A DNA stretch of 21,467 nucleotides from Escherichia phage vB_EcoS-611R1. Under the pieces are notes generated by a model. It was not told where the DNA came from and did no database searches. It saw only the letters and a program-made list of their open reading frames with translations. The translations under genes were made by a program, and so were the position numbers. Within the stretch, counting starts at the first letter, position 1; every line of letters starts with the position of its first letter. Shown here one piece after another: positions 4,309 through 21,467 of the stretch. The stretch is taken from sequence record ON470586.1; one strand, 5' to 3'.

Positions 4309-5013
4309 TTAACTGACGGTAACAGTGCAGGAAGTAGAGGTCACTTTGTTAACCGGGCTTGCTGAATCAGAAATCTCGCAGGTATATGCACCCGCATCAC
4401 CGGATACTGCCGATGCCTTACTGAACGTTGCCGCCGTCTGTCCGGAAACAGGAGAACCACCTTTCTTCCAGACATAAGAATAAGGCGGCACACCACCCGC
4501 AGCCTCAACCGCCATTTCAAGTTTCGATCCGGAAGCAACCCGCAGCGTGCTTTTTAAATCGACCTTCACTTTCAGCGGCTCTGTCGTCAGCACAGGTTTA
4601 CCTTTCAGGCGCAGAGAAAACGTTGCAGCCACAACACCATTGGTTCCTGCAGACCAGGTATGCTGACGCACCTCTGCCATAAAGGTAAATCCGTTGCCTG
4701 ACGGAAAAATAACTTTAAAGCCATACGTGGTGTCATTGTCATAGGCACTGCGCAACGCGTTCTGGGCAGCATTGAGGTAAAAGTTGCCTGACATGGAAAT
4801 CTCTGAAGCAGCACCAAGGCCGTTAATATTTTCCTGCTCAACAGAACACAGCGTGGTGACATCAATATCCTGCTTTTGTCCTGCAGTAAACTGCACCTCT
4901 TTGATTGTACAGCTCAGGCCAAGATAGCTGGCAGAATCCAGGGTTTCTGCTGTTACCGGTGCAGACGAAATCATAATTTTCGTCAGTTGCGAACGCTCAA
5001 AATTAGAGGACAT
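4309..5013 (-). CDS. major tail protein (lambda gpV-like) with C-terminal Ig-like domain
   Basis: ORF 4309..5064; the start at 5013 (MSSNFERSQLTK...) has an AGGAGA RBS. The C-terminal ~90 aa (..GGVPPYSYVWKKGGSPVSGQTAATFSKASAVSGDAGAYTCEISDSA..TSCTVTVS) looks like a Big_2-type Ig domain typical of siphovirus major tail proteins. Confidence 0.8.
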   Translation of the reverse strand: MSSNFERSQLTKIMISSAPVTAETLDSASYLGLSCTIKEVQFTAGQKQDIDVTTLCSVEQENINGLGAASEISMSGNFYLNAAQNALRSAYDNDTTYGFKVIFPSGNGFTFMAEVRQHTWSAGTNGVVAATFSLRLKGKPVLTTEPLKVKVDLKSTLRVASGSKLEMAVEAAGGVPPYSYVWKKGGSPVSGQTAATFSKASAVSGDAGAYTCEISDSASPVNKVTSTSCTVTVS

Positions 5014-5025
5014 ACTCGTCTCCTG

Positions 5026-5052
5026 AAAATAAAAAACCCGCCAGCGGCGGGT
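5026..5052 (-). terminator. intrinsic terminator-like hairpin upstream of the major tail gene
   Basis: Minus-strand RNA: stem ACCCGCC/GGCGGGU with a 3-nt loop, followed by a U run (plus-strand A run 5026-5036), placed between the gp11-like stop and the major tail RBS. Confidence 0.4.
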
Positions 5053-5072
5053 GGGTAAAATCATTAACGACC

Positions 5073-5417
5073 TCAGGCTATTACCTGAAATTCAAGCGTG
5101 GCTCTGCTCAGACGGGAGTCAGGATCATACCCCTGCGTTTTAGAAATAACGGAGGGTGCCAGTTTCCTTACTGCATCAAGCGCCTGCTCACGAATATCAT
5201 CTGCGTCATCAGGTACTGTCGCCCAGACATCGATCTGCACGGTAATTCTGGATTCAGCCTGCCCATCAAGCACATCAGATGCCGTGTCAGACACCACAGA
5301 AAACACCAGCCACGGCGGAGATACCGCAGGCTTTCCCTCCGTCAGCGGGACCACATAAGGATAAACCTGTCCTCCGGCCAGCTGAGACAACAGGGAATAC
5401 AGTGTGCCCTCCCTCAT
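5073..5417 (-). CDS. tail component protein (gp11/DUF3168-like, tail completion candidate)
   Basis: 114-aa ORF located between the HK97-gp10-like gene and the major tail gene. Assignment rests on synteny and size more than on sequence. Confidence 0.5.
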   Translation of the reverse strand: MREGTLYSLLSQLAGGQVYPYVVPLTEGKPAVSPPWLVFSVVSDTASDVLDGQAESRITVQIDVWATVPDDADDIREQALDAVRKLAPSVISKTQGYDPDSRLSRATLEFQVIA

Positions 5418-12674: not shown

Positions 12675-13214
12675 ATGGATATTAAAGATAAAATCAATAC
12701 CATTTTGTTATGTGACATTGCCATCCACCTAGGTATCGAAACTGATATTGATCCACAGCTTGTTAAATATGCTGTGTCATCTGGTAATGATTGGGTTATC
12801 AAGGCCGAATATTCACATTTGGATGTTGACGAACCAAGTAAAGAAGATCGTGATTTTGTTACTGCTGTCTTGAATATGTATCGCGGACTTTCCAATGCTT
12901 TCAGGAAACTTAGTGATGACGAGCAAAAAGAATTAGTCCGTGACCATCATCTAAAAATACATGATGGGGCAATTCAGCTCCCAGGTTTCGACGGTAATAA
13001 TGAATGCGATTACTTCAGTATCATTGAGGCATATCAGAAAATTGATCGCTTCCCCGAACAGAAACAGCCCATTGCCAATACTCATTCACGTACAGAACAT
13101 CTCTATAACGCAATGCTTGATGAGTTTAAGAAAATTGACGCTGTAAATCGAAGCTGGGATTTATCGAAGGAAGAACTGGCATCCATTCTTTCCACAGCTC
13201 CACGCAGTTTCTAA
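12675..13214 (+). CDS. YfbU-family-like protein (tentative), cargo/moron gene
   Basis: 179-aa ORF on the strand opposite to all phage late genes, with RBS GAGGG 7 nt before the ATG. It is AT-rich by hand count. The C-terminal two thirds resemble my recollection of E. coli YfbU (UPF0304); this is unverified. Confidence 0.5.
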   Translation: MDIKDKINTILLCDIAIHLGIETDIDPQLVKYAVSSGNDWVIKAEYSHLDVDEPSKEDRDFVTAVLNMYRGLSNAFRKLSDDEQKELVRDHHLKIHDGAIQLPGFDGNNECDYFSIIEAYQKIDRFPEQKQPIANTHSRTEHLYNAMLDEFKKIDAVNRSWDLSKEELASILSTAPRSF

Positions 13215-13219
13215 GTGCT

Positions 13220-13486
13220 TTAGGCGGGTTTCCAACCCGCCTTATTATGCTCGTATATAGAGAAGGAAGCACCCAAATTAACCAGCGCGGATTTCTTTTC
13301 CTCAATACGGCTGTTAAGTTCAGCAACTGCATGCGGGCGTATGGCCTCAAGAAAAGCACTATATTGATAGGCAGACTGGATTGTCACACCAAGCCCTGCA
13401 CCACTTTCCAGTATACCTTTCTGTCGCTGTAGCTCTTTCATCTCGTTATAGATGTAATGTGCGTTACTTAGGTTTTCTACGTTCAC
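13220..13486 (-). CDS. hypothetical protein (88 aa)
   Basis: ORF with a GTG start preceded by AGGAAG; it is convergent with the YfbU-like gene, with stops about 5 nt apart. Its last codons are encoded by a hairpin (13222..13242), so the ORF call is uncertain. Confidence 0.35.
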   Translation of the reverse strand: MNVENLSNAHYIYNEMKELQRQKGILESGAGLGVTIQSAYQYSAFLEAIRPHAVAELNSRIEEKKSALVNLGASFSIYEHNKAGWKPA

Positions 13487-13604
13487 GCCCTAAGTTCTTC
13501 CTGCAGTTAGCCTGCACTGATTTGTTATGCGCCAATATGTCCCGCTTCGTCTGTTGCATTATCATAAGTAATAGCGTAGGTTGACACCTTGGCTCTCTTT
13601 CGCC

Positions 13605-13645
13605 ACCGGCGAATCTTTAGCGGATTATCCTTGGCCGGTTTTTAT
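13605..13645 (+). terminator. plus-strand terminator-like structure before the Rz stop
   Basis: Stem ACCGGC/GCCGGU enclosing a 23-nt loop that contains a 4-bp inner stem, followed by TTTTTA on the plus strand. It would stop plus-strand read-through from the cargo region into the lysis genes. Confidence 0.3.
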
Positions 13646-14124
13646 CTGAGACATTGCTCACGAATGTATAGCTGTGCCCCTTCCAGTTGCTTCTGCATCG
13701 TCATCAACCGTTCTCTGAGGGTGAAATAATCCCGTTCAGCGGTGTCTGCCAGTCTGGGGCTGGTTGCATTATCCACGCTGGTGGGTCCGGTGGCTTCACG
13801 CACGGCTGCGGAGCAACTGGCATTGACCCGCAGGCGCTTACGACCAGCGGCAACATCAGCGCGCAGAGTTTCATTTTCAGCTTTCGCATTGGCTAATTCT
13901 CTCGAGTACTTTGCATCGAGCGCAGCAACATCACGCTGACGCTGCTGCATGTCAGCGATGGTGGCGGTCAGCTGCTTCAGCTCACTGACTTTTTTATCAC
14001 GCTGTTCTTTGTAGGTGATGGCGTTATCACGGTAATGATTGACCGCCCACGACAGGCAGACGATGATGCAGATAACCAGAGCATAAATAATCGCGGCGAC
14101 TCTGCTCACTGATCTATTCCCCAA
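13642..14124 (-). CDS. Rz (i-spanin)
   Basis: 160-aa ORF with an N-terminal transmembrane segment ([20 protein letters not shown]) and a coiled-coil periplasmic domain; it overlaps the endolysin 3' end and has Rz1 embedded in the +1 frame. Confidence 0.8.
13704..13889 (-). CDS. Rz1 (o-spanin lipoprotein), embedded in Rz
   Basis: 61-aa ORF lying wholly inside Rz in another frame. It has a signal peptide with lipobox LVVSAC and a proline-rich mature part ([16 protein letters not shown]...). Confidence 0.8.
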
Positions 14125-14639
14125 CAGGCTAATGCGCTTTCTTGGTCACGACGAATAACCTGTCCATAGCAGTTATTTGAACGTATGCGGCAATCGCGCC
14201 CACCATCTTTTATCCACCAGCGAATCGCCTCGCATGCGCCCTTACGATCACCAGCATTCAGCCGCTTATAAAACGTCGATGGAAAACACTTACCGGGGCC
14301 AATGTTATAGGGACAAAATGACGCGATACCCGCTTTTTGTGGTTCGGTCAGTGGTACTTTAATATTGCGCTCCACCCATGCCAGCGCCTTATCACGCTCA
14401 ATGGCGTTGACCTGGTCGCATTTTTCCTTCGACAGTTTCATACCGGGAAAAACGGGTTTTCCATCCACCATCGTGGCACCCCGACAGATGGTCCAGATGC
14501 CGGAACCATCGCGGTATGCCGTTGTGTGGTTACCTTCTTTTTCATCCAGAAACTGGTCGAGAATATCAGGCGCGGGCGCACCGACGGCAATCAGTGCCAG
14601 AACGGCAGCCGACAGGCCGTATCTGATTTTTGCGTTCAT
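14106..14639 (-). CDS. SAR endolysin (T4-lysozyme-type, phage 21 R-like)
   Basis: 177-aa ORF with a weakly hydrophobic Gly/Ala-rich N-terminal signal-anchor-release segment ([18 protein letters not shown]) followed by the lysozyme catalytic region [20 protein letters not shown]. Confidence 0.85.
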
Positions 14640-14702
14640 GGATATTTATCAGGATTTATCGGTTTCTGCCCACGGACAGGTTTATCTGTTCCGGTCAGTG
14701 AC

Positions 14703-15053
14703 TTAAGGTTGTGATTCCGGAGGAGTCTTCAGAGAACCAGTAATTCTTCCTGGTAGCTTTCCTTTGTAGGTTATCCACACATTCTGCGCCTCTAAAATTA
14801 CGGGGCGCTTTTCCGGCGACTGCTCATCCCCTTCACATAACCCGGCAGCAACATCCAGGAAGACCTGTCTGATGCTCCTTCTGGCTGCTGCCTCATAAAA
14901 CTCCAGCGCGGCACCTTCAACACGGTCCAGCGAGATGTCCAGGTCAAAAATTTCACCGTCAAAGCGTTTTTTGTCCCGTAACGCTAAAGTTACCGTAACT
15001 TTATTCTCAAAATTGCGGATCCCTTTCACAATCAGTTCATAGTTTTGAGTCAT
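14703..15053 (-). CDS. uncharacterized protein inside the lysis cassette (possibly YdfR/DUF1327-like)
   Basis: 116-aa ORF that exactly fills the gap between the pinholin stop (15058) and the endolysin start (14639). It has no hydrophobic segments. I recall ydfR occupying this position in the E. coli Qin prophage; the family name is from memory. Confidence 0.55.
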   Translation of the reverse strand: MTQNYELIVKGIRNFENKVTVTLALRDKKRFDGEIFDLDISLDRVEGAALEFYEAAARRSIRQVFLDVAAGLCEGDEQSPEKRPVILEAQNVWITYKGKLPGRITGSLKTPPESQP

Positions 15054-15057
15054 TGAA

Positions 15058-15273
15058 TTACTCTCCCCGTGCAGCCTTACGCTTGTCTTCTCTGATTTTG
15101 AAGTACAGATTTGTCAGATAAGTCAGGAAGCCCAGAACCAGACTCCCCAGTACACCAATCGCAGCCCACTGTGACGGACTGACCTGATCAAGCCACTGTA
15201 AAAACCAGTAGCCAGCACTGCCTGCGGAGGTGCCGTAGGCAATGCCCGTTGAAATTTTGTCCATGGATTTCAT
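15058..15273 (-). CDS. pinholin (phage 21 S-type class II holin) with dual-start motif
   Basis: [71 protein letters not shown] closely matches my recollection of S21/EssD-type pinholins, including the Met1-Lys-Ser-Met4 antiholin/holin dual start. The ORF-track extension to 15372 starts at GTG and is unlikely to be translated. Confidence 0.85.
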
Positions 15274-15410
15274 AGCCTCACCTCCGCAGCGAACGGATGG
15301 CGTAGTTATAAGGGGAGCGAAAAAGAAAGAATGCGCGATTGCGCAATATGGTAACGTCAGGGTATTATCCACTGGCTGAATAGATCACTTCACGTTTTTT
15401 GTTCCTTGCC

Positions 15411-15439
15411 GCCCGTATCCATATGCGGGCTTTTTTTTT
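15411..15439 (+). terminator. plus-strand intrinsic terminator
   Basis: Hairpin GCCCGTAT-CCAT-ATGCGGGC (8 bp including one G-T pair) followed by T9 on the plus strand. Confidence 0.5.
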
Positions 15440-15445
15440 GCATGT

Positions 15446-15475
15446 AAAAAGGCCCCAACACATGTGCGTGGGGCC
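15446..15475 (-). terminator. minus-strand intrinsic terminator between the tRNA cluster and the holin
   Basis: Minus-strand RNA: stem GGCCCCA/UGGGGCC around an 11-nt loop, followed by UUUUU (plus-strand AAAAA at 15446-15450). Confidence 0.45.
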
Positions 15476-15675
15476 TGAGAGTATACATGGTTTCAGTCAA
15501 CTGCATGGTGCCGTGTGCCTCCCGGTGAATTCAGTACCAGCACCTGAATCCGCGATTATCCCATATACCTACTCGCTGATTGCCCCTCCGCACAGGGGGA
15601 TTCACCATGCCAGTTTCTTTTGACAAACTCCCCGCAAAACAGACAACTGTCAACCGTCTGAATTGTGAGACATTT

Positions 15676-15700
15676 AAAAAAAGGCCCGCAAAAGCGAGCC
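15676..15700 (-). terminator. minus-strand intrinsic terminator after the tRNA cluster
   Basis: Minus-strand RNA: GGCUCGC-UUUU-GCGGGCC with one U-G pair, followed by U7 (plus-strand A run 15676-15682), about 15 nt downstream of the 3' end of tRNA-Arg(UCU). Confidence 0.55.
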
Positions 15701-15714
15701 GGGAAAAATAAGTC

Positions 15715-15791
15715 TGGCGCGTTGTACTGGATTCGAACCAGTGACCGATTGCTTAGAAGGCAATTGCTCTGTCCGGTTGAGCTAACAACGC
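15715..15791 (-). tRNA. tRNA-Arg (anticodon UCU)
   Basis: Hand-folded 77-nt cloverleaf on the minus strand: acceptor GCGTTGT/ACAACGC, D stem GCTC/GAGC, anticodon stem ATTGC/GCAAT with loop CTTCTAA, T stem ACTGG/CCAGT with loop TTCGAAT, then an encoded CCA. Confidence 0.8.
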
Positions 15792-15804
15792 AGGGTACAG
15801 ATAA

Positions 15805-15881
15805 TGGACCGCCATCGAGGACTCGAACCCCGCGCAACCAGCTTCGAAGGCTGGCGCTCTATCATGATGAGCTAATGGCGG
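15805..15881 (-). tRNA. tRNA-Arg (anticodon UCG by hand fold)
   Basis: 77-nt cloverleaf: acceptor CCGCCAT/ATGGCGG, D stem GCTC/GAGC, anticodon stem CCAGC/GCTGG with loop CTTCGAA, T loop TTCGAGT, encoded CCA. The D loop lacks the usual GG, so the call needs tRNAscan-SE confirmation. Confidence 0.65.
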
Positions 15882-15888
15882 TATGTGA

Positions 15889-15965
15889 TGGTGGCCCTTG
15901 CTGGATTTGAACCAGCGACCTGGCGATTATAACTCGCTCTCATCATTTAGCTAAAATGGCTGGGG
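15889..15965 (-). tRNA. tRNA-like element, ileZ/ileX-like, possibly degenerate (pseudo-tRNA or atypical tRNA-Ile UAU)
   Basis: The 3' half matches tRNA-Ile2 (ileX) as I recall it (..GGTCGCTGGTTCAAATCCAGCAAGGGCCACCA). The anticodon arm is about 4 nt short relative to ileX (GAGTTATAATCGCC) and the acceptor 5' strand (AGCCATT) mispairs at two positions. Confidence 0.4.
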
Positions 15966-16085
15966 GAGTGATGATACATCAGTCACATTAAACATGAAAA
16001 CAAATCGTTTTAGGTGAAATACAAAAAGAATAGTGATTAAATATCAAATGGATATGCTTTAAATCTAACCACAGTAAGGACGAGT

Positions 16086-17030
16086 ATGATTTTTCTCAAG
16101 AATGGCGAAAGTTTTATTCGCGTGAATGACTGGGCAGAAATTCAGGCGAGAGAGTCTTACTATCCCAAATTAGAGTTAAATGATCAGCAACTCTCTGACG
16201 TTTTTGGTTACTACGATGACCTACCAGAGGAAATTCCATGTGGAAAATCAAATTGCCGCAAAGGGCATAAAAAGGGATTTCTGGTAGTTACGAAAGAAGG
16301 ATTTGAAACGAATATCGGCCATGTATGTGGAACTAATGTTTTTGGTATAGCATTTGATAATTTAGCAATAGAACTTTGCAGAAAAGCAGATTTCCATCGC
16401 TTACTTACCGCACTTAAAGAGGCAAAAGATGATATTTTTAGCTATTACAAACTCAAAGCCAAAATCGAATCTGGGCGTCCATCACTAACTGAGGTTGCTC
16501 ATAGAATACTTGACATGAAAGACCCTAAAATCATCGGGCGTGCGGCTTATCAAACATTGAAAAAGATGGCTGCTTCTGGTGATGGGCGTGTTTTCCGCTC
16601 AAGATTAAAAAATACAGAAGAGCTAGAACTGGACGAAATTATGTCCCAGAAGCAAACAAGCGACTCAGCTCCAAAAGTTAACAACAAAAACAAAACCGTA
16701 AATGAACTTATTGGGGTAATACAATACCCTGAATGCTTGCTGAATGATTATGACATTGCTCTTCTTTATGAAAGAGATATAAAAATGGTTCTGGAAAAAT
16801 TAAACAAATGTACCCCAGATGAATTGACTGAAAGAGAGGTGTTGTCTTTTGGAATAAAGGTTTCAAGATTAAGAGAACGCTTTAACTTTGTTCAGGAACG
16901 CTTAGAAAAATCCAGGGTTTTTGCAACAAGAGAAAACCTTAAACCTTTACGTGCATTACTTAACATTCAGAAATCTGTAAGCAATAAAGACAAATTACTA
17001 TTTAAGAAATTTATGGAAAATTTACCATAA
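16086..17030 (+). CDS. uncharacterized protein (314 aa), AT-rich cargo gene in the Q-to-lysis moron hotspot
   Basis: Opposite strand to every flanking phage gene, with RBS AAGGA 7 nt before the ATG and a hairpin terminator right after the stop. Hand-counted GC is about 38-42% against about 52% in a capsid gene sample. The N-terminus has a Cys/His cluster (PCGKSNCRKGHKKG...NIGHVCG); the rest is Lys/Glu-rich and likely helical. I recognise no family. Confidence 0.75.
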   Translation: MIFLKNGESFIRVNDWAEIQARESYYPKLELNDQQLSDVFGYYDDLPEEIPCGKSNCRKGHKKGFLVVTKEGFETNIGHVCGTNVFGIAFDNLAIELCRKADFHRLLTALKEAKDDIFSYYKLKAKIESGRPSLTEVAHRILDMKDPKIIGRAAYQTLKKMAASGDGRVFRSRLKNTEELELDEIMSQKQTSDSAPKVNNKNKTVNELIGVIQYPECLLNDYDIALLYERDIKMVLEKLNKCTPDELTEREVLSFGIKVSRLRERFNFVQERLEKSRVFATRENLKPLRALLNIQKSVSNKDKLLFKKFMENLP

Positions 17031-17032
17031 TT

Positions 17033-17056
17033 AAAAAACCCGCTATAAAGCGGGTT
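17033..17056 (-). terminator. tR'-like intrinsic terminator (bidirectional hairpin)
   Basis: Stem AACCCGCT/AGCGGGTT (17037-17044 with 17049-17056), loop ATAA. On the minus strand it is followed by U6, a strong terminator for transcripts from the promoter downstream of Q. On the plus strand it follows the 314-aa gene's stop with a weaker T-rich tail. Confidence 0.6.
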
Positions 17057-17097
17057 CCGTGTTAATTTTTATATTGGCGCTAAACCCCATAATTAAA

Positions 17098-17127
17098 ATG
17101 ATACAAGACAATTTTATGCAAAGTCAA
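17098..17127 (-). promoter_or_regulatory. candidate late promoter (PR'-like) downstream of the Q-like gene
   Basis: On the minus strand: -35 TTGACT (plus 17122-17127), 18-nt spacer, -10 TATCAT (plus 17098-17103). It lies about 45 nt after the Q-like stop and about 40 nt before the tR'-like terminator, predicting a short roughly 60-nt leader RNA as in the lambda PR'-qut-tR' unit. Confidence 0.5.
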
Positions 17128-17166
17128 GTCGGTTGCTCAAAAATCTCTCCGCCAAAGCTGTTCAGA

Positions 17167-17982
17167 TCAGTAACTCGTTGCCTTCTCAAATTCTCTAGCC
17201 GCATGCCGCTCACCTTGATGCAGGATATCAATCAATTTTTCATAGAATGGTTTCCAATTGCGCGACCATGAAGACTGGTGCAGATCGGGAATGTATATTT
17301 GAATAGCTCGATGAACATTAGCTGATTTGATAGATACGAATCCCTTTCCACTACAACGCTCGCAGATTTTAAACACTGGCACACCACGCTCGCTTGTGGC
17401 TTTGCGGTCCAGTACCTCTCCCTTTCCACCACAACGACACCTGGCACTTATCACTCCCTTCCCTTTACATACATCGCAAACGACTGGTACAACTTCCGTT
17501 ACCTCTGTCCATTTTTCCCAGTCTGACGGTCGAACAGCACGGGAGCGACTGGCCCAATATGGTGCTTTACCCCATGGGTATGAAACCTTACGAATGACCT
17601 GCTTACGGGGTGTTAGTCCGGTACCACTGCAACTATGGCATGTTACGCTGGTGGCCGCCGATCGGGAATACTCAGCAAAAGCAAACTGAGCCAGTACCAG
17701 CATACACCAGCCAAATTCACCACCAGCTGCTTTACGCACATTCTTCGGTGCAATTTCCATCGCGTGACGCGCCAGCGCCTGGACTGCCATCTGCTCATCA
17801 GTCTTGCTGATACCGGCCTTCCCGAAGAAGGCCGCCAGGCCAAACCGCTCACGATTACTGGTGGTACCAATAGCCGCCATAACATCGGTGCCTGTAAGAC
17901 GTTCCGGAGAGGTTCCTTTCACATCGTCGCCGATATACATTCCCTGAGGACTGAAGTATTTTAGCGATGCCTCAAGCTTCAT
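17167..17982 (-). CDS. Q-like late antiterminator candidate with four CxxCxGxG zinc-finger repeats (QuuQ/YdfT-like)
   Basis: 271-aa ORF with the motifs CHSCSGTG, CDVCKGKG, CRCGGKG and CERCSGKG. It sits immediately upstream of the PR'/tR'-like unit and the lysis genes, and its start overlaps the stop of the preceding gene. The family name is from memory. Confidence 0.55.
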   Translation of the reverse strand: MKLEASLKYFSPQGMYIGDDVKGTSPERLTGTDVMAAIGTTSNRERFGLAAFFGKAGISKTDEQMAVQALARHAMEIAPKNVRKAAGGEFGWCMLVLAQFAFAEYSRSAATSVTCHSCSGTGLTPRKQVIRKVSYPWGKAPYWASRSRAVRPSDWEKWTEVTEVVPVVCDVCKGKGVISARCRCGGKGEVLDRKATSERGVPVFKICERCSGKGFVSIKSANVHRAIQIYIPDLHQSSWSRNWKPFYEKLIDILHQGERHAAREFEKATSY

Positions 17983-18839
17983 TATTCACACTCCCCAACC
18001 AGATTGAGAATGACCGCTGCACCGTCGTCTTCCATGCATTCACCCTTACCACTTGCCAGAAACCAGCGGCACACCTCCACGGCTTCAGCGCGTGTCACCG
18101 GTTTGATGGTTGCCAGCAATTTTTCAAGGTAGCGCTCGCGGTCATATACCGATTCGTGATGCTCAGAGTAACCAAACTCATCGCCCTGTTCTTTAGTTGC
18201 AGTGTGGCGAACACTGTAGAGCCAGTCCCAGTAAACGAACTCGCGAACAACATCAGACAGCGTATAAGGCTCAGGCAGCACATCGCGATATCCATCAACA
18301 AATGCCCGACGCTGTTCATCAATTTCGTTCATGCGGCTGCCGCCAATGCTTCCGGCTTTTTTCTCTGCCGCAGTCCAGCCCCAGAGATGATCGTTGATAA
18401 ATTTCTGGGAAGACCTGATGACCCGCTCTGCTTCCACATCTTCGAGCGCTGCTTCATAGCTACCAAACGTAGCCCTGACTGATGCCGCTTTTTTGATGTT
18501 CTCCCGGGCGTTCCTGATAACCTGCGCAGGGTTATCCATGCCGATGATGCCGAACGCAACCTGGAAAGGTTCGTAACCATTCGCCAGCAGATAACGCGAA
18601 TAGCGTTCCTGAGCCTCTTTTGGGGAAATTTTAATTTTCACCAGCGCAGCCTCAGCAGCATCCAGATGTGCGGGTTCGTTCAGACGGATAACCTCCAGCA
18701 CCCAAAGATAAGCATCAGTCTGCTTATGCCCGGTGATTCTCCGTTGCTCTGGCAGGGGCTTGATGTTTGCGAGGGCGGAGCTGTACGCTGCCGTCGGGAT
18801 GGTGAATAGTGCTTTATGTTCGTTATTATCAGTACGCAT
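17982..18839 (-). CDS. hypothetical protein (285 aa)
   Basis: ORF translationally coupled to the primase upstream and the Q-like gene downstream (shared-nucleotide stop/start overlaps). No motif recognised. Confidence 0.6.
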   Translation of the reverse strand: MRTDNNEHKALFTIPTAAYSSALANIKPLPEQRRITGHKQTDAYLWVLEVIRLNEPAHLDAAEAALVKIKISPKEAQERYSRYLLANGYEPFQVAFGIIGMDNPAQVIRNARENIKKAASVRATFGSYEAALEDVEAERVIRSSQKFINDHLWGWTAAEKKAGSIGGSRMNEIDEQRRAFVDGYRDVLPEPYTLSDVVREFVYWDWLYSVRHTATKEQGDEFGYSEHHESVYDRERYLEKLLATIKPVTRAEAVEVCRWFLASGKGECMEDDGAAVILNLVGECE

Positions 18840-19807
18840 TACGCAACCGCCTTTTTCTTATGGAAAACCAGCTCTCGAACCTGATCACCGTTCATGAGCA
18901 TATTGTTGAAATCATCGTGATCCGGCCAGTACACGCTCACGCGCTGCAGGTCATTCTTTGCCATCAGATTGGCATGAGCACATTCGCAAGCCGCAGCCAG
19001 CCCGGTGGCGCTGTTCTCGTCACGGTCGGCAAAAATAATCAGGTGCAGAACACCAGCTGGTACGCGAAACTTTTTCATAAAGCCGCTGTTAATGGTTGCC
19101 CAGGTGTTCACGTTATAAATCTGGTGCGCTGACAGCGCTGTTTCGATGCCTTCGGCGATACCCAGAGTGCTGGCGACAGGAAACATGCGGATAGCTACAG
19201 AACGAGCGTGATCCAAATAGTTATCTTCCTGCAGGGATTTGAGGCGCTTTGCACTGCTACCGATATCTGCTTTTTTATCACCATCAAGCAGAGTCTGGTG
19301 CAGATAGCACAACTCCCCTTTATCGTCCGTAGCAAGTGAATAAAGAGACTGGAACACACTCCCGTTGTGTCTCTGCCTGGCATTGAACCGGATCGCCTCA
19401 GCAGGAAGACTGAATATTCCACGAGAATTAAGATACGCTGCGCCGGATGTACCACGCAGTGCCTCCAGTTTTGAAAACTTGCTCAATACCCGTTTGCGTA
19501 AGCTGGTGGCGCTGCTGGTTACCGGGATTTTAACCCGTTGGTAATCATTACCGATCAGGCGGTCTATTTCGGTACAAATCTCGTTAAATGGCTTCGCCTG
19601 TGTCAGGGTGACAAGTTTCATACCATCGCCACTACCACATACACAGATCCACGTTCCTGCACCGTCGCGGTCGTCAATTCGGAACTTGCCACGTGCACCG
19701 CATACCGGGCATTCACCCTTGAAGTGATTTTTTCCGGTTATCGGCGGCAGACCGAAGTGCTCTAATATTTCAGGCCAGCGGCCTTTCGCTGCATCTGCTG
19801 TTTTCAT
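18839..19807 (-). CDS. DNA primase (zinc-binding domain plus Toprim domain)
   Basis: 322-aa ORF with an N-terminal zinc-finger-like element (CPVCGARGKF...WICVCG) and a Toprim-like acidic motif (EGIETALS ... IIFADRDEN). Confidence 0.75.
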   Translation of the reverse strand: MKTADAAKGRWPEILEHFGLPPITGKNHFKGECPVCGARGKFRIDDRDGAGTWICVCGSGDGMKLVTLTQAKPFNEICTEIDRLIGNDYQRVKIPVTSSATSLRKRVLSKFSKLEALRGTSGAAYLNSRGIFSLPAEAIRFNARQRHNGSVFQSLYSLATDDKGELCYLHQTLLDGDKKADIGSSAKRLKSLQEDNYLDHARSVAIRMFPVASTLGIAEGIETALSAHQIYNVNTWATINSGFMKKFRVPAGVLHLIIFADRDENSATGLAAACECAHANLMAKNDLQRVSVYWPDHDDFNNMLMNGDQVRELVFHKKKAVA

Positions 19808-19808
19808 C

Positions 19809-21467
19809 TTACTGACTCAGACTGTTTATATTTTTCTGGAGTTGGTGCTTTGCCTGCATGATGCGCCAGGCCTCACTGCCTGCCGGTATCTCACGTCGTT
19901 CATCACGTTCCTGAGATAAATCAATCGTTGTTTGTGCGTTTTCAGTGACCTTCTGAACCCGCTGGTGGCCTTTGGCAAACCGGATCAGTTTGTGTCTGAT
20001 GTAGTTATTTACCTCAGGGGTAATTTCCATCGGAAAGTTACTCAGTCCGTCAGGCCACTCACCGAACTTTTCCCGGAAAGTGTGAGCACACCATCCGTCA
20101 CTGACTGGACGCCCCAGCGAAGCACGCTGGCGCTGATAAAATTTGATCTGACTCCACCAGGACTGTTTCTCTGCCTTCGTCGACTGATGCTGATTTTTAC
20201 CCAGCTTATTAAGTTTGCGGCTAGTGTCAGTATCAACGTCTTCACCTCGCAGCGGCTTGTGTCCACATTTCGGGCAAACATAGACGCCTGCTGGCTTCAT
20301 GTAGTGGCATTGAGGGCATTCATGTGGCAGTTTTTCGGCCCGTTCCTCAACTGCCCGGCGCGCGCTTTCCTCCATGCCGTCAGACTTACCGGGAAGCTCG
20401 TCGTACTCGATTGAATCCGGATAACCCAAACGGTGCACGGTGCCGCTGTGATCGAAGATAAGGCAGGACTCTTTACCCGGTGCGGTGCGCAGCCCACGCC
20501 CGAGCGCCTGCAACCAGCGAATTTCGCTTTTTGTTGGTCTGGCGTAGATGATGCAACGAACGTCACTATCAAAGCCGGCCACCAGAACGCCCACACTAAC
20601 GATGATTTTCGTTGCACCGGTTTCAAAGCGGTGAATGATGGTCTGGCGCTCATCTACCGGAGTGTCTGCGGTCATTACCTCAGCGTTAACACCCGCCAGG
20701 TTAAACTGGATTGTCAGGTAATTGGCGTGGGCTACGTTGACGCAGAAAGCGATGGTAGGTAGATCCCGACCATTCTCCAGCCAGTTCTGTACAATGTCGC
20801 CCACCAGCGTAGAGCCGCACATGATTTCAGCCAGCTGTGTTTCGTTGTAATCGCGGCCGTACTCAAGCGAAGATGTGGTTTTAACACCTTTCAGATCCGG
20901 CTTAGTTGGCGCGTAAAATTCGTATTTACTCAGATCGCCACGCTGGATTAACTCGCCGATGGTGGTCGGTTTAATCAGTCGGTCATAGTATTTGCCCAGG
21001 AACGGGGAAAACGGAGTACCCGACAGGCCAATCACCTTTACGCCTTTGCCGCGCAGACGTTCGATATCCTTCAGGATGCGTTTTTTACGCAGGTGCGCTT
21101 CGTCGATAATCAGCAGATCGATATTTTCAGGAAAAACACGACGAATAAGCGTATCAGCGCTGGCAATCTGAATTTTCCGGTCCGGATCGTAGTTCGGGTG
21201 ATCCGCCCAGATATAACCGATTTCATCTCCAGGTAAACCATACTGCACGAACCGATTAGCCGTCTGACCAATCAGGATGGTGTACGGAACACAGAACAGA
21301 ACACGCATACCACGGCTGACAAAACCAGCAACTATGAAGGCTGCCAGACCCGTTTTACCGCTACCTGTTGGCGAGTAAACCATGAAGGTGTCGTTTGCCT
21401 TCCAGTCACGGCGCAACATGTTTAACGCTCGTTCCTGTGCAAAATTCGGCGTGATCGTCAGCTCCAT
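19809..21467 (-). CDS. SF2 DEAD/DEAH-box helicase with C-terminal zinc ribbon; N-terminus at the window edge
   Basis: 552-aa ORF with Walker A SPTGSGKTG, DEAH box IIDEAHL, motif III GLSGTPF, motif VI QALGRGLR and a C-terminal CPQCH...CPKCGH element. The ATG is the last codon of the window, so the true start may lie beyond it. Confidence 0.8.
   Translation of the reverse strand: MELTITPNFAQERALNMLRRDWKANDTFMVYSPTGSGKTGLAAFIVAGFVSRGMRVLFCVPYTILIGQTANRFVQYGLPGDEIGYIWADHPNYDPDRKIQIASADTLIRRVFPENIDLLIIDEAHLRKKRILKDIERLRGKGVKVIGLSGTPFSPFLGKYYDRLIKPTTIGELIQRGDLSKYEFYAPTKPDLKGVKTTSSLEYGRDYNETQLAEIMCGSTLVGDIVQNWLENGRDLPTIAFCVNVAHANYLTIQFNLAGVNAEVMTADTPVDERQTIIHRFETGATKIIVSVGVLVAGFDSDVRCIIYARPTKSEIRWLQALGRGLRTAPGKESCLIFDHSGTVHRLGYPDSIEYDELPGKSDGMEESARRAVEERAEKLPHECPQCHYMKPAGVYVCPKCGHKPLRGEDVDTDTSRKLNKLGKNQHQSTKAEKQSWWSQIKFYQRQRASLGRPVSDGWCAHTFREKFGEWPDGLSNFPMEITPEVNNYIRHKLIRFAKGHQRVQKVTENAQTTIDLSQERDERREIPAGSEAWRIMQAKHQLQKNINSLSQ

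Follow-up and report, generated by a model that had tools for sequence, protein, structure and literature searches.

The region downstream of the Q-like gene in Escherichia phage vB_EcoS-611R1 raises the question of how late transcription could reach the lysis genes, given that the one unusual feature of the predicted late control unit is an opposite-strand prophage gene ending 2 bases from its terminator, and the related question of whether that terminator belongs to the Q module or to the opposite-strand gene. The window analysed was the whole stretch of 21,467 nt (sequence record ON470586.1), to which all coordinates refer. Its phage genes are located on the minus strand in the order of a lambdoid prophage, namely helicase, primase, a 285-aa ORF, the 271-aa Q and the late unit. 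Downstream of this unit lie the 314-aa ORF, which is on the plus strand, a tRNA-like element with two tRNA-Arg genes, STnc100, and then the holin, DUF1327 protein, lysozyme, Rz, HNH, terminase and portal genes; the tRNA, holin, lysozyme, Rz, HNH, terminase and portal genes are all on the minus strand, downstream of the late promoter. When the segment 15650-17300 was queried, it was found to be 100% identical to the chromosome of E. coli strain 19AR1724. The genes and elements that frame the late unit are as follows.

17167..17982, minus strand: Q antiterminator, 271 aa (PF03589, phrog_127)
16086..17030, plus strand: 314-aa cargo, or moron, gene annotated without a function (phrog_7003; conserved C52, C57, H61, H79 and C81)
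15892-15960, minus strand: tRNA-like element, called by Rfam only (32.6 bits), with neither an ARAGORN call nor a RefSeq annotation
15805-15881, minus strand: tRNA-Arg(tcg)
15715-15791, minus strand: tRNA-Arg(tct)
15683..15700, minus strand: second strong terminator, separating the tRNAs from the lysis genes (stem of 7 pairs, including 6 GC pairs, then T7)
13642..15372, minus strand: lysis cassette (holin, DUF1327/YdfR, lysozyme, Rz)

The tRNA cluster (15715..15960, minus strand) is homologous to the ileZ-argN-argO cluster of Stx phages, and the tRNA-like element is probably a decayed ileZ/Met-like tRNA of that cluster. Between the tRNAs and the holin gene, the small RNA STnc100 was detected at 15440-15639 on the minus strand (Rfam 128.9 bits vs a gathering score of 47), with a TTGACA just upstream and the terminator at 15700..15683 preceding it; this slot is where the stx genes sit in Stx phages. 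It was also noticed that the late operon contains a second opposite-strand gene, a YfbU-family ORF of 179 aa (12675..13214, plus strand) between Rz and HNH/terminase, the stop of which is 5 nt from that of a convergent 88-aa ORF (13220-13486, minus strand); no hairpin terminator was found between these two ORFs.

The product of the Q gene matched PF03589, which has been named as the lambda-Q family (PMC9388147), in two stretches (E = 4.6e-51). Comparison with lambda Q gave 30% identity over the full length with one 64-aa gap, and comparison with the solved lambda Q structure (PDB 7UBM) gave E = 6e-33. Relative to lambda Q, an insertion of ~64 aa was noticed in the zinc-ribbon arm (residues about 124-187), giving rise to two CxxC...CxxC sets and a weak DnaJ_CXXCXGXG match. 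In lambda, the Q arm contacts the DNA site and sigma region 4, and the insertion could alter the geometry of loading.

The first-pass annotation had proposed, in the interval between Q and the 314-aa gene, a sigma70-like promoter followed about 40 nt later by a hairpin-plus-U6 terminator, in the layout of the lambda 6S RNA. The elements that we located or predicted in this interval are listed below.

17122..17127, minus strand: -35 hexamer TTGACT of the predicted PR'
17109..17121, minus strand: spacer block TTGCATAAAATTG, candidate Q-binding element
17098..17103, minus strand: -10 hexamer TATCAT of the predicted PR', separated from the -35 hexamer by an 18-nt spacer
17085..17094, minus strand: -10-like hexamer AATTAT followed by GGGG, candidate sigma-dependent pause element
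17033..17090, minus strand: predicted leader RNA, lambda 6S-like, ~58 nt, as deduced from the promoter and terminator positions
17033..17058, minus strand: intrinsic terminator tR', hairpin GGAACCCGC/GCGGGTT(TT) followed by T6

In a motif scan, TTGACT-18-TATCAT (17127..17098, minus strand) matched at 10 of 12 positions and was the top promoter-like site in 13500-19900. The hairpin, GGAACCCGC-TTTATA-GCGGGTTTT, spans 17058..17035 on the same strand, begins 40 nt past the -10 hexamer and runs into a T tract at 17038..17033; it folds alone at -13.7 kcal/mol, and a 64-nt leader folds at -20.6 kcal/mol (z = -3.8). The motif counts of the region were, however, at the level expected from shuffles (9 promoter-like sites vs 9.0 expected, and 8 terminator-like sites vs 6.9), and significance must therefore rest on the comparison with relatives.

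For this comparison, the Q protein was used as the query in tblastn and in a scan of IMG/VR, which yielded phage records and 80 loci carrying Q relatives of 75-100% identity, which together with other loci gave 64 distinct 230-nt segments downstream of Q. Terminators were called by an energy-based search (hairpin dG of -9 kcal/mol or lower plus a T run), with 640 dinucleotide shuffles as the control. Sequence comparison revealed TTG(A/C)(C/T)T-18-TAnnnT at the same place in all 64 segments, so that the promoter proposed after the Q-like gene was found to be kept throughout; the -35 hexamer was TTGA(C/T)T in 62 of them, and the -10 hexamer conformed to TAnnnT in all, in 10 different versions. 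Other conserved bases were not imposed by the search pattern, as T6 of the -35 hexamer was present in 64/64 and TGTC-n-TG just before the -10 hexamer in 62-64 of 64. A single GC hairpin with a T-rich tail, equivalent to that at 17058..17033, was present in 61 of the 64 segments vs 6.2% of the shuffles, with its T run ending 57-74 nt (median 64) past the -10 hexamer. These hairpins comprised 48 distinct sequences, including the unrelated stem types CCCGC/GCGGG, CCCTGCC/GGCGGGG, GCCCC/GGGGC and CCCACT/AGTGGG. Structure and distance are thus kept while the sequence varies, which is the pattern of a terminator under selection. The exceptions were Yersinia phage YP3 and two loci with an interrupted hairpin (L039 and L048, both from IMG/VR); in the latter two, an unrelated GC-rich insert comes after CCCGCCACCGTGCG, some 60-110 nt past the -10 hexamer, and no recognisable tR' was found at the usual distance.

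The sequence of the predicted promoter resembles that of lambda PR' beyond the -35 hexamer. The lambda promoter reads TTGACT-TA-TTGAATAAAATTG-GG-TAAATT-TGACTC-AACGAT-GGG, and that of the window TTGACT-TTGCATAAAATTG-TCTTG-TATCAT-TTT-AATTAT-GGGG. The spacer block TTGCATAAAATTG is identical at 12 of 13 bases to TTGAATAAAATTG of the lambda spacer, and in both cases the 13-nt block ends 14 nt before the -10-like hexamer. From this resemblance, we infer that the shared block corresponds to the lambda Q-binding element. Among the relatives, two spacer classes were recognised that co-vary with two Q C-termini: TTGCATAAAAyTGTCyTG occurs with a Q ending in ..EFEKATxY, and TTGTCCGAAGTTGTCGTG with a Q ending in ..SFxDDxN... 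This co-variation fits a Q-specific binding site.

Of the -10 positions, A2 and T6 are those on which sigma region 2 depends most. In the second hexamer, these two bases were invariant in 64/64 relatives over 16 hexamer forms, and the next base was G in 60/64. In lambda, AACGAT (+1..+6) together with the GGG "discriminator-like" bases induces the +16 pause (PMC4005639). The AATTAT of the window begins 3 nt after the -10 hexamer, whereas its lambda counterpart begins 6 nt after it. With the usual start site, predicted to be the A at 17090 within AATTAT, the 3-nt gap would make the second hexamer straddle +1 rather than occupy +1..+6. It could also be that a conserved TA..GCGCC around +7..+15 is the true pause signal instead.

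A Q cassette has been described as consisting of the Q gene, PR', a Q-binding element, a sigma-dependent pause element, a terminator and the late genes (PMC9388147). The likeness of the window to lambda comprises a homologous Q (PF03589), the TTGACT -35 hexamer, the near-identical 13-nt spacer block, a -10-like hexamer plus GGG at the same distance from that block, an intrinsic terminator before the late genes, and lysis genes downstream. It differs from lambda in the leader (~58 vs 194 nt), the spacer (18 vs 17 nt), the position of the -10-like hexamer (3 vs 6 nt after the -10 hexamer), the insertion of ~64 aa in Q, and the opposite-strand gene between tR' and the lysis genes. The proposal that a late control unit of the PR'/tR' type, arranged as for the lambda 6S RNA, lies behind Q is borne out as a conserved arrangement, with a leader much shorter than that of lambda.

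Three other explanations of these motifs were weighed. One is that they are chance matches in an AT-rich intergenic region, as motif counts equal to the shuffle expectation would allow. We regard this as extremely improbable, since both elements are fixed behind Q in 61-64 of the 64 relatives, with compensating changes in the hairpins, vs 6% of the shuffles; judged by conservation in sequence, the promoter/terminator pair is above chance. Another is that the late promoter is the overlapping TTGAGC-18-TAAAAT (17140..17111), with TATCAT being a transcribed pause element. This site scored 9 of 12 in the scan and would put TATCAT at about +2..+7, as AACGAT is in lambda. However, in a second promoter class (phi467, YP3, L033, L072 and others) ATAAAA is replaced by TCCGAA and a matching -35 hexamer is lacking, although TTGATT-18-TATGCT is kept, and the corresponding TAAAAT of lambda is part of the spacer rather than the -10 hexamer. 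The upstream promoter was rejected as not conserved, and we consider it quite improbable. The remaining explanation is that the short PR'-tR' RNA is the main product in the lysogen, acting either in trans as an Hfq-dependent small RNA like StxS or in cis as an antisense RNA to the 3' end of cargo transcripts that continue through the hairpin. An AU-rich single-stranded stretch, the terminator hairpin and a U6 tail make up a layout like that of small RNAs, StxS and the lambda 6S RNA provide precedents (PMC7547250), and the last ~25 nt of the leader would be fully complementary to any cargo transcript passing the hairpin. The leader body, on the other hand, varies widely among the relatives except near the start and in the shape of the hairpin, which argues against a conserved seed, and Rfam gave no family at the gathering threshold for the unit or its leader RNA. 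Permissive matches (Trp_leader, 26 bits vs 41; isrK, 17.9 bits vs a cut-off of 50) were driven by the terminator and were treated as chance. A main role as a regulatory RNA thus appears unlikely, though somewhat less so than the upstream promoter.

As to the module to which the hairpin belongs, the promoter, the terminator and the length of the leader were found to be the same in relatives that lack the cargo gene, namely Fraca, Klebsiella phage ST846-OXA48phi9.2 and 39 further distinct loci. Because these cargo-free relatives keep the hairpin at the same distance, it is the tR' of the Q module, and its arrival together with the cargo gene is ruled out. One metagenome locus (L009, ENA contig k141_1975, ~4953-5200) holds a decayed cassette that still has its cargo gene and hairpin as well as some of the leader and -10 region. 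A truncated hok-like ORF (MKLPRNALICCVLIMCLTLLIFYSVCVE) stands in place of the -35 side, and a Q gene was not called in the vicinity. The locus had been entertained as a case of cargo without Q, a reading that was dropped as the leader and hairpin of the decayed cassette are retained.

The first-pass annotation had also stated that the hairpin, read on the other strand, terminates the cargo gene. The position agrees with this, as only 2 nt separate the cargo stop codon (17028-17030) from the final T of the run; as a function it is doubtful in the window, where the plus-strand tail after the hairpin is TTCCGTGTT instead of a T tract and a plus-strand terminator was found neither by the motif scan nor by a lenient test. 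The near-identical relatives L017, L018, L020 and L024 likewise failed the plus-strand test, while a U tract on each strand was seen in L011, L072 and L082. That the hairpin is a true bidirectional terminator, at which the cargo mRNA would end as efficiently as the short late leader, is therefore doubtful, with the failing TTCCGTGTT tail standing against several observations: in all close family members the cargo stop lies 2-6 nt from the T run; several relatives have a T-rich tail in the cargo sense (e.g., GGGGCTTTTCATT in L011, and also L072/L082); and in the window an extended AU stem followed by UUUAUAUU is possible on the plus strand (-13.1 kcal/mol, z = -2.35). In the lenient test, 17 of 22 cargo-bearing loci passed vs 21 of 39 cargo-free ones, but the gap between 77% and 54% is small, and these loci do not count as independent cases. 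Cargo-free loci have the A-rich stretch before the hairpin just as often, and hence no adaptation to the cargo gene is apparent. For the cargo transcript, the hairpin would be at best a weak terminator or a 3'-end stabiliser.

The 314-aa protein, with its conserved Cys and His residues near the N-terminus, had no match in Pfam, NCBIfam or PADLOC, nor did ten distant family members in Pfam or PADLOC. A profile search revealed a family of 551 representative clusters, mostly of ~300 aa, and a profile scan of genome contigs with the cargo alignment gave no confirmed locus. The AlphaFold2 model was mediocre (pLDDT 68, pTM 0.49), a Foldseek search of the PDB with this model returned nothing below E = 0.3, and a literature search on the RefSeq protein accessions found no mention. 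The GC content of the gene is 0.32-0.39 vs ~0.5 in the flanks, and it has a good ribosome-binding site and a candidate promoter of its own.

16014..16042, plus strand: candidate cargo promoter GTGAAA-17-TG-a-TTAAAT, non-canonical

This candidate was absent from the motif scan because it is non-canonical (hexamer position 2 is not A), and the block nTGAAA-17-GTG(A/G)TTAAATAT is kept ahead of the gene even in family members whose proteins are only ~60% identical. It was also noticed that GTG(A/G)TTAAATAT (16030-16045, plus strand), with its homologous sites in L002, L011, L013, L052, L072 and L009, is more conserved than the coding sequence and contains a short inverted repeat, TGAT-n5-ATCA; the block could function as an operator, either instead of or in addition to a -10 region.

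Directly behind tR', 22 of the 64 distinct loci carry a homologue of the cargo gene (25-100% identity), always antisense to Q. In Ewingella, a copy is placed and oriented in the same way behind a Q of PF06323 (the Q82 family), at a distance of ~70 nt from the terminator. Distant relatives were found immediately downstream of a cI-like repressor and in the same direction (L099, 2064-3933), a layout like that of rexAB, which follows cI in lambda, and close to the repressor/cro region (L097, 3001-3912; L016, 3501-4415). Slots by cI-like repressors or after tR' host lysogen-expressed genes, which suggests that the cargo gene is a moron probably expressed in the lysogen. Of the features of a moron, patchy presence (22/64) and deviant base composition were observed, together with the conserved promoter-like block; a separate terminator is absent, and the gene abuts tR'. 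Taken on sequence features, it is probably an independently acquired, AT-rich moron that is expressed in the lysogen.

With the opposite-strand cargo gene ending 2 bases from the terminator, late transcription must read through it backwards. An antisense passage through the cargo gene to the tRNAs and lysis genes, as had been claimed, is to judge from the gene order the only late route, and this order recurs in the 22 cargo-bearing loci. No terminator-like site was found on the minus strand inside 16086..17030, and in L011 and L013 the holin gene starts ~200 nt beyond the start of the cargo gene. The scan also found a weak promoter-like site at 16000..15971 (minus strand), from which transcription could reach the tRNAs independently of Q but would stop at 15700.

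The reading that we favour, with a probability of about 0.8 for the whole, is that 17033..17127 (minus strand) is the late cassette of a lambdoid E. coli prophage, driven by Q-dependent read-through, with a cargo gene inserted after tR'. Polymerase starting at PR' would make the ~58-nt leader and stop at the hairpin and T6 of tR'. After induction, Q would bind the conserved spacer block and load onto polymerase held at AATTAT-GGGG, so that tR' would be ignored. The modified polymerase would then cross the 945-bp cargo gene antisense and continue past the tRNAs and the second terminator (15700..15683), which would also need antitermination, to the holin, lysozyme, Rz and packaging genes. The cargo gene would have been inserted directly after tR' as an independent acquisition. 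What was observed are the sequence elements with their conservation and co-variation, the gene order and the homology of Q; from these we predict that the promoter is active, where it starts, that Q binds, that polymerase pauses and reads through, and that cargo expression is interfered with. Mutual interference between cargo and late transcription is plausible, and the "built-in switch" between lysogeny and lysis that had been suggested for this locus is speculation.

Short PR'-tR' RNAs are known from lambda, 21, phi80, 82, P22 and Stx phages, one of them being the functional small RNA StxS; it comes from a system with a short, 144-aa Q, in which a 258-nt PR'-tR' region is processed to 74 nt (PMC7547250). 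The window resembles the Stx phages 933W/Sakai in having Q, the promoter and terminator, tRNAs (ileZ-argN-argO-like) and then toxin or lysis genes, whereas it differs from the StxS system in its lambda-family Q and ~58-nt leader. A further precedent is the ant moron of P22, an embedded moron through which late transcription passes (PMC2629481). The cargo gene is similar in being an independently expressed, patchy gene of deviant composition in a late operon, and differs in its leader-proximal slot against tR', its antisense orientation in all 22 cases, and, for the close family, a stop codon that lies within 2-6 nt of the T run. The bor gene of lambda is a further example of a late operon with a gene on the opposite strand.

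It is unlikely, in our judgement, that the tight and always antisense placement of the cargo gene against tR' is a selected arrangement instead of an accident of insertion. If it were, poorly terminated read-through from the cargo gene in the lysogen would enter PR' and continue into Q in antisense, so that spontaneous late expression would be dampened, and after induction Q-modified polymerases would overrun and silence the cargo gene; in Stx2e/Stx2f prophages the cargo gene could then help to set toxin output and inducibility. The order of Q, promoter/terminator, antisense gene and tRNAs was found directly upstream of stx2e in STEC276 and STEC308, and phi467 carries a more distant, partly frameshifted cargo homologue upstream of stx2f. 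In a paper on Stx2e production, a "hypothetical protein" was reported upstream of stx2e in 17% of strains, with neither its identity nor its orientation given.

The unit itself is textbook biology, and the main use of the present result is in the annotation of this prophage group, including those carrying Stx2e and Stx2f. The set of 64 loci amounts to a natural mutagenesis map of a lambda-Q-type promoter, with an invariant A2 and T6 in the second hexamer, two spacer classes co-varying with the Q C-terminus and a constant terminator distance, and it could guide experiments on Q specificity. The recurrence of a large uncharacterised family (551 clusters) in slots of lysogen-expressed genes makes the cargo gene a candidate for a host-benefit or exclusion gene. 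Lying between the late promoter and the toxin genes in Stx2e/2f prophages, it could also contribute, in a way open to testing, to variation in Stx2e production that is so far poorly understood.
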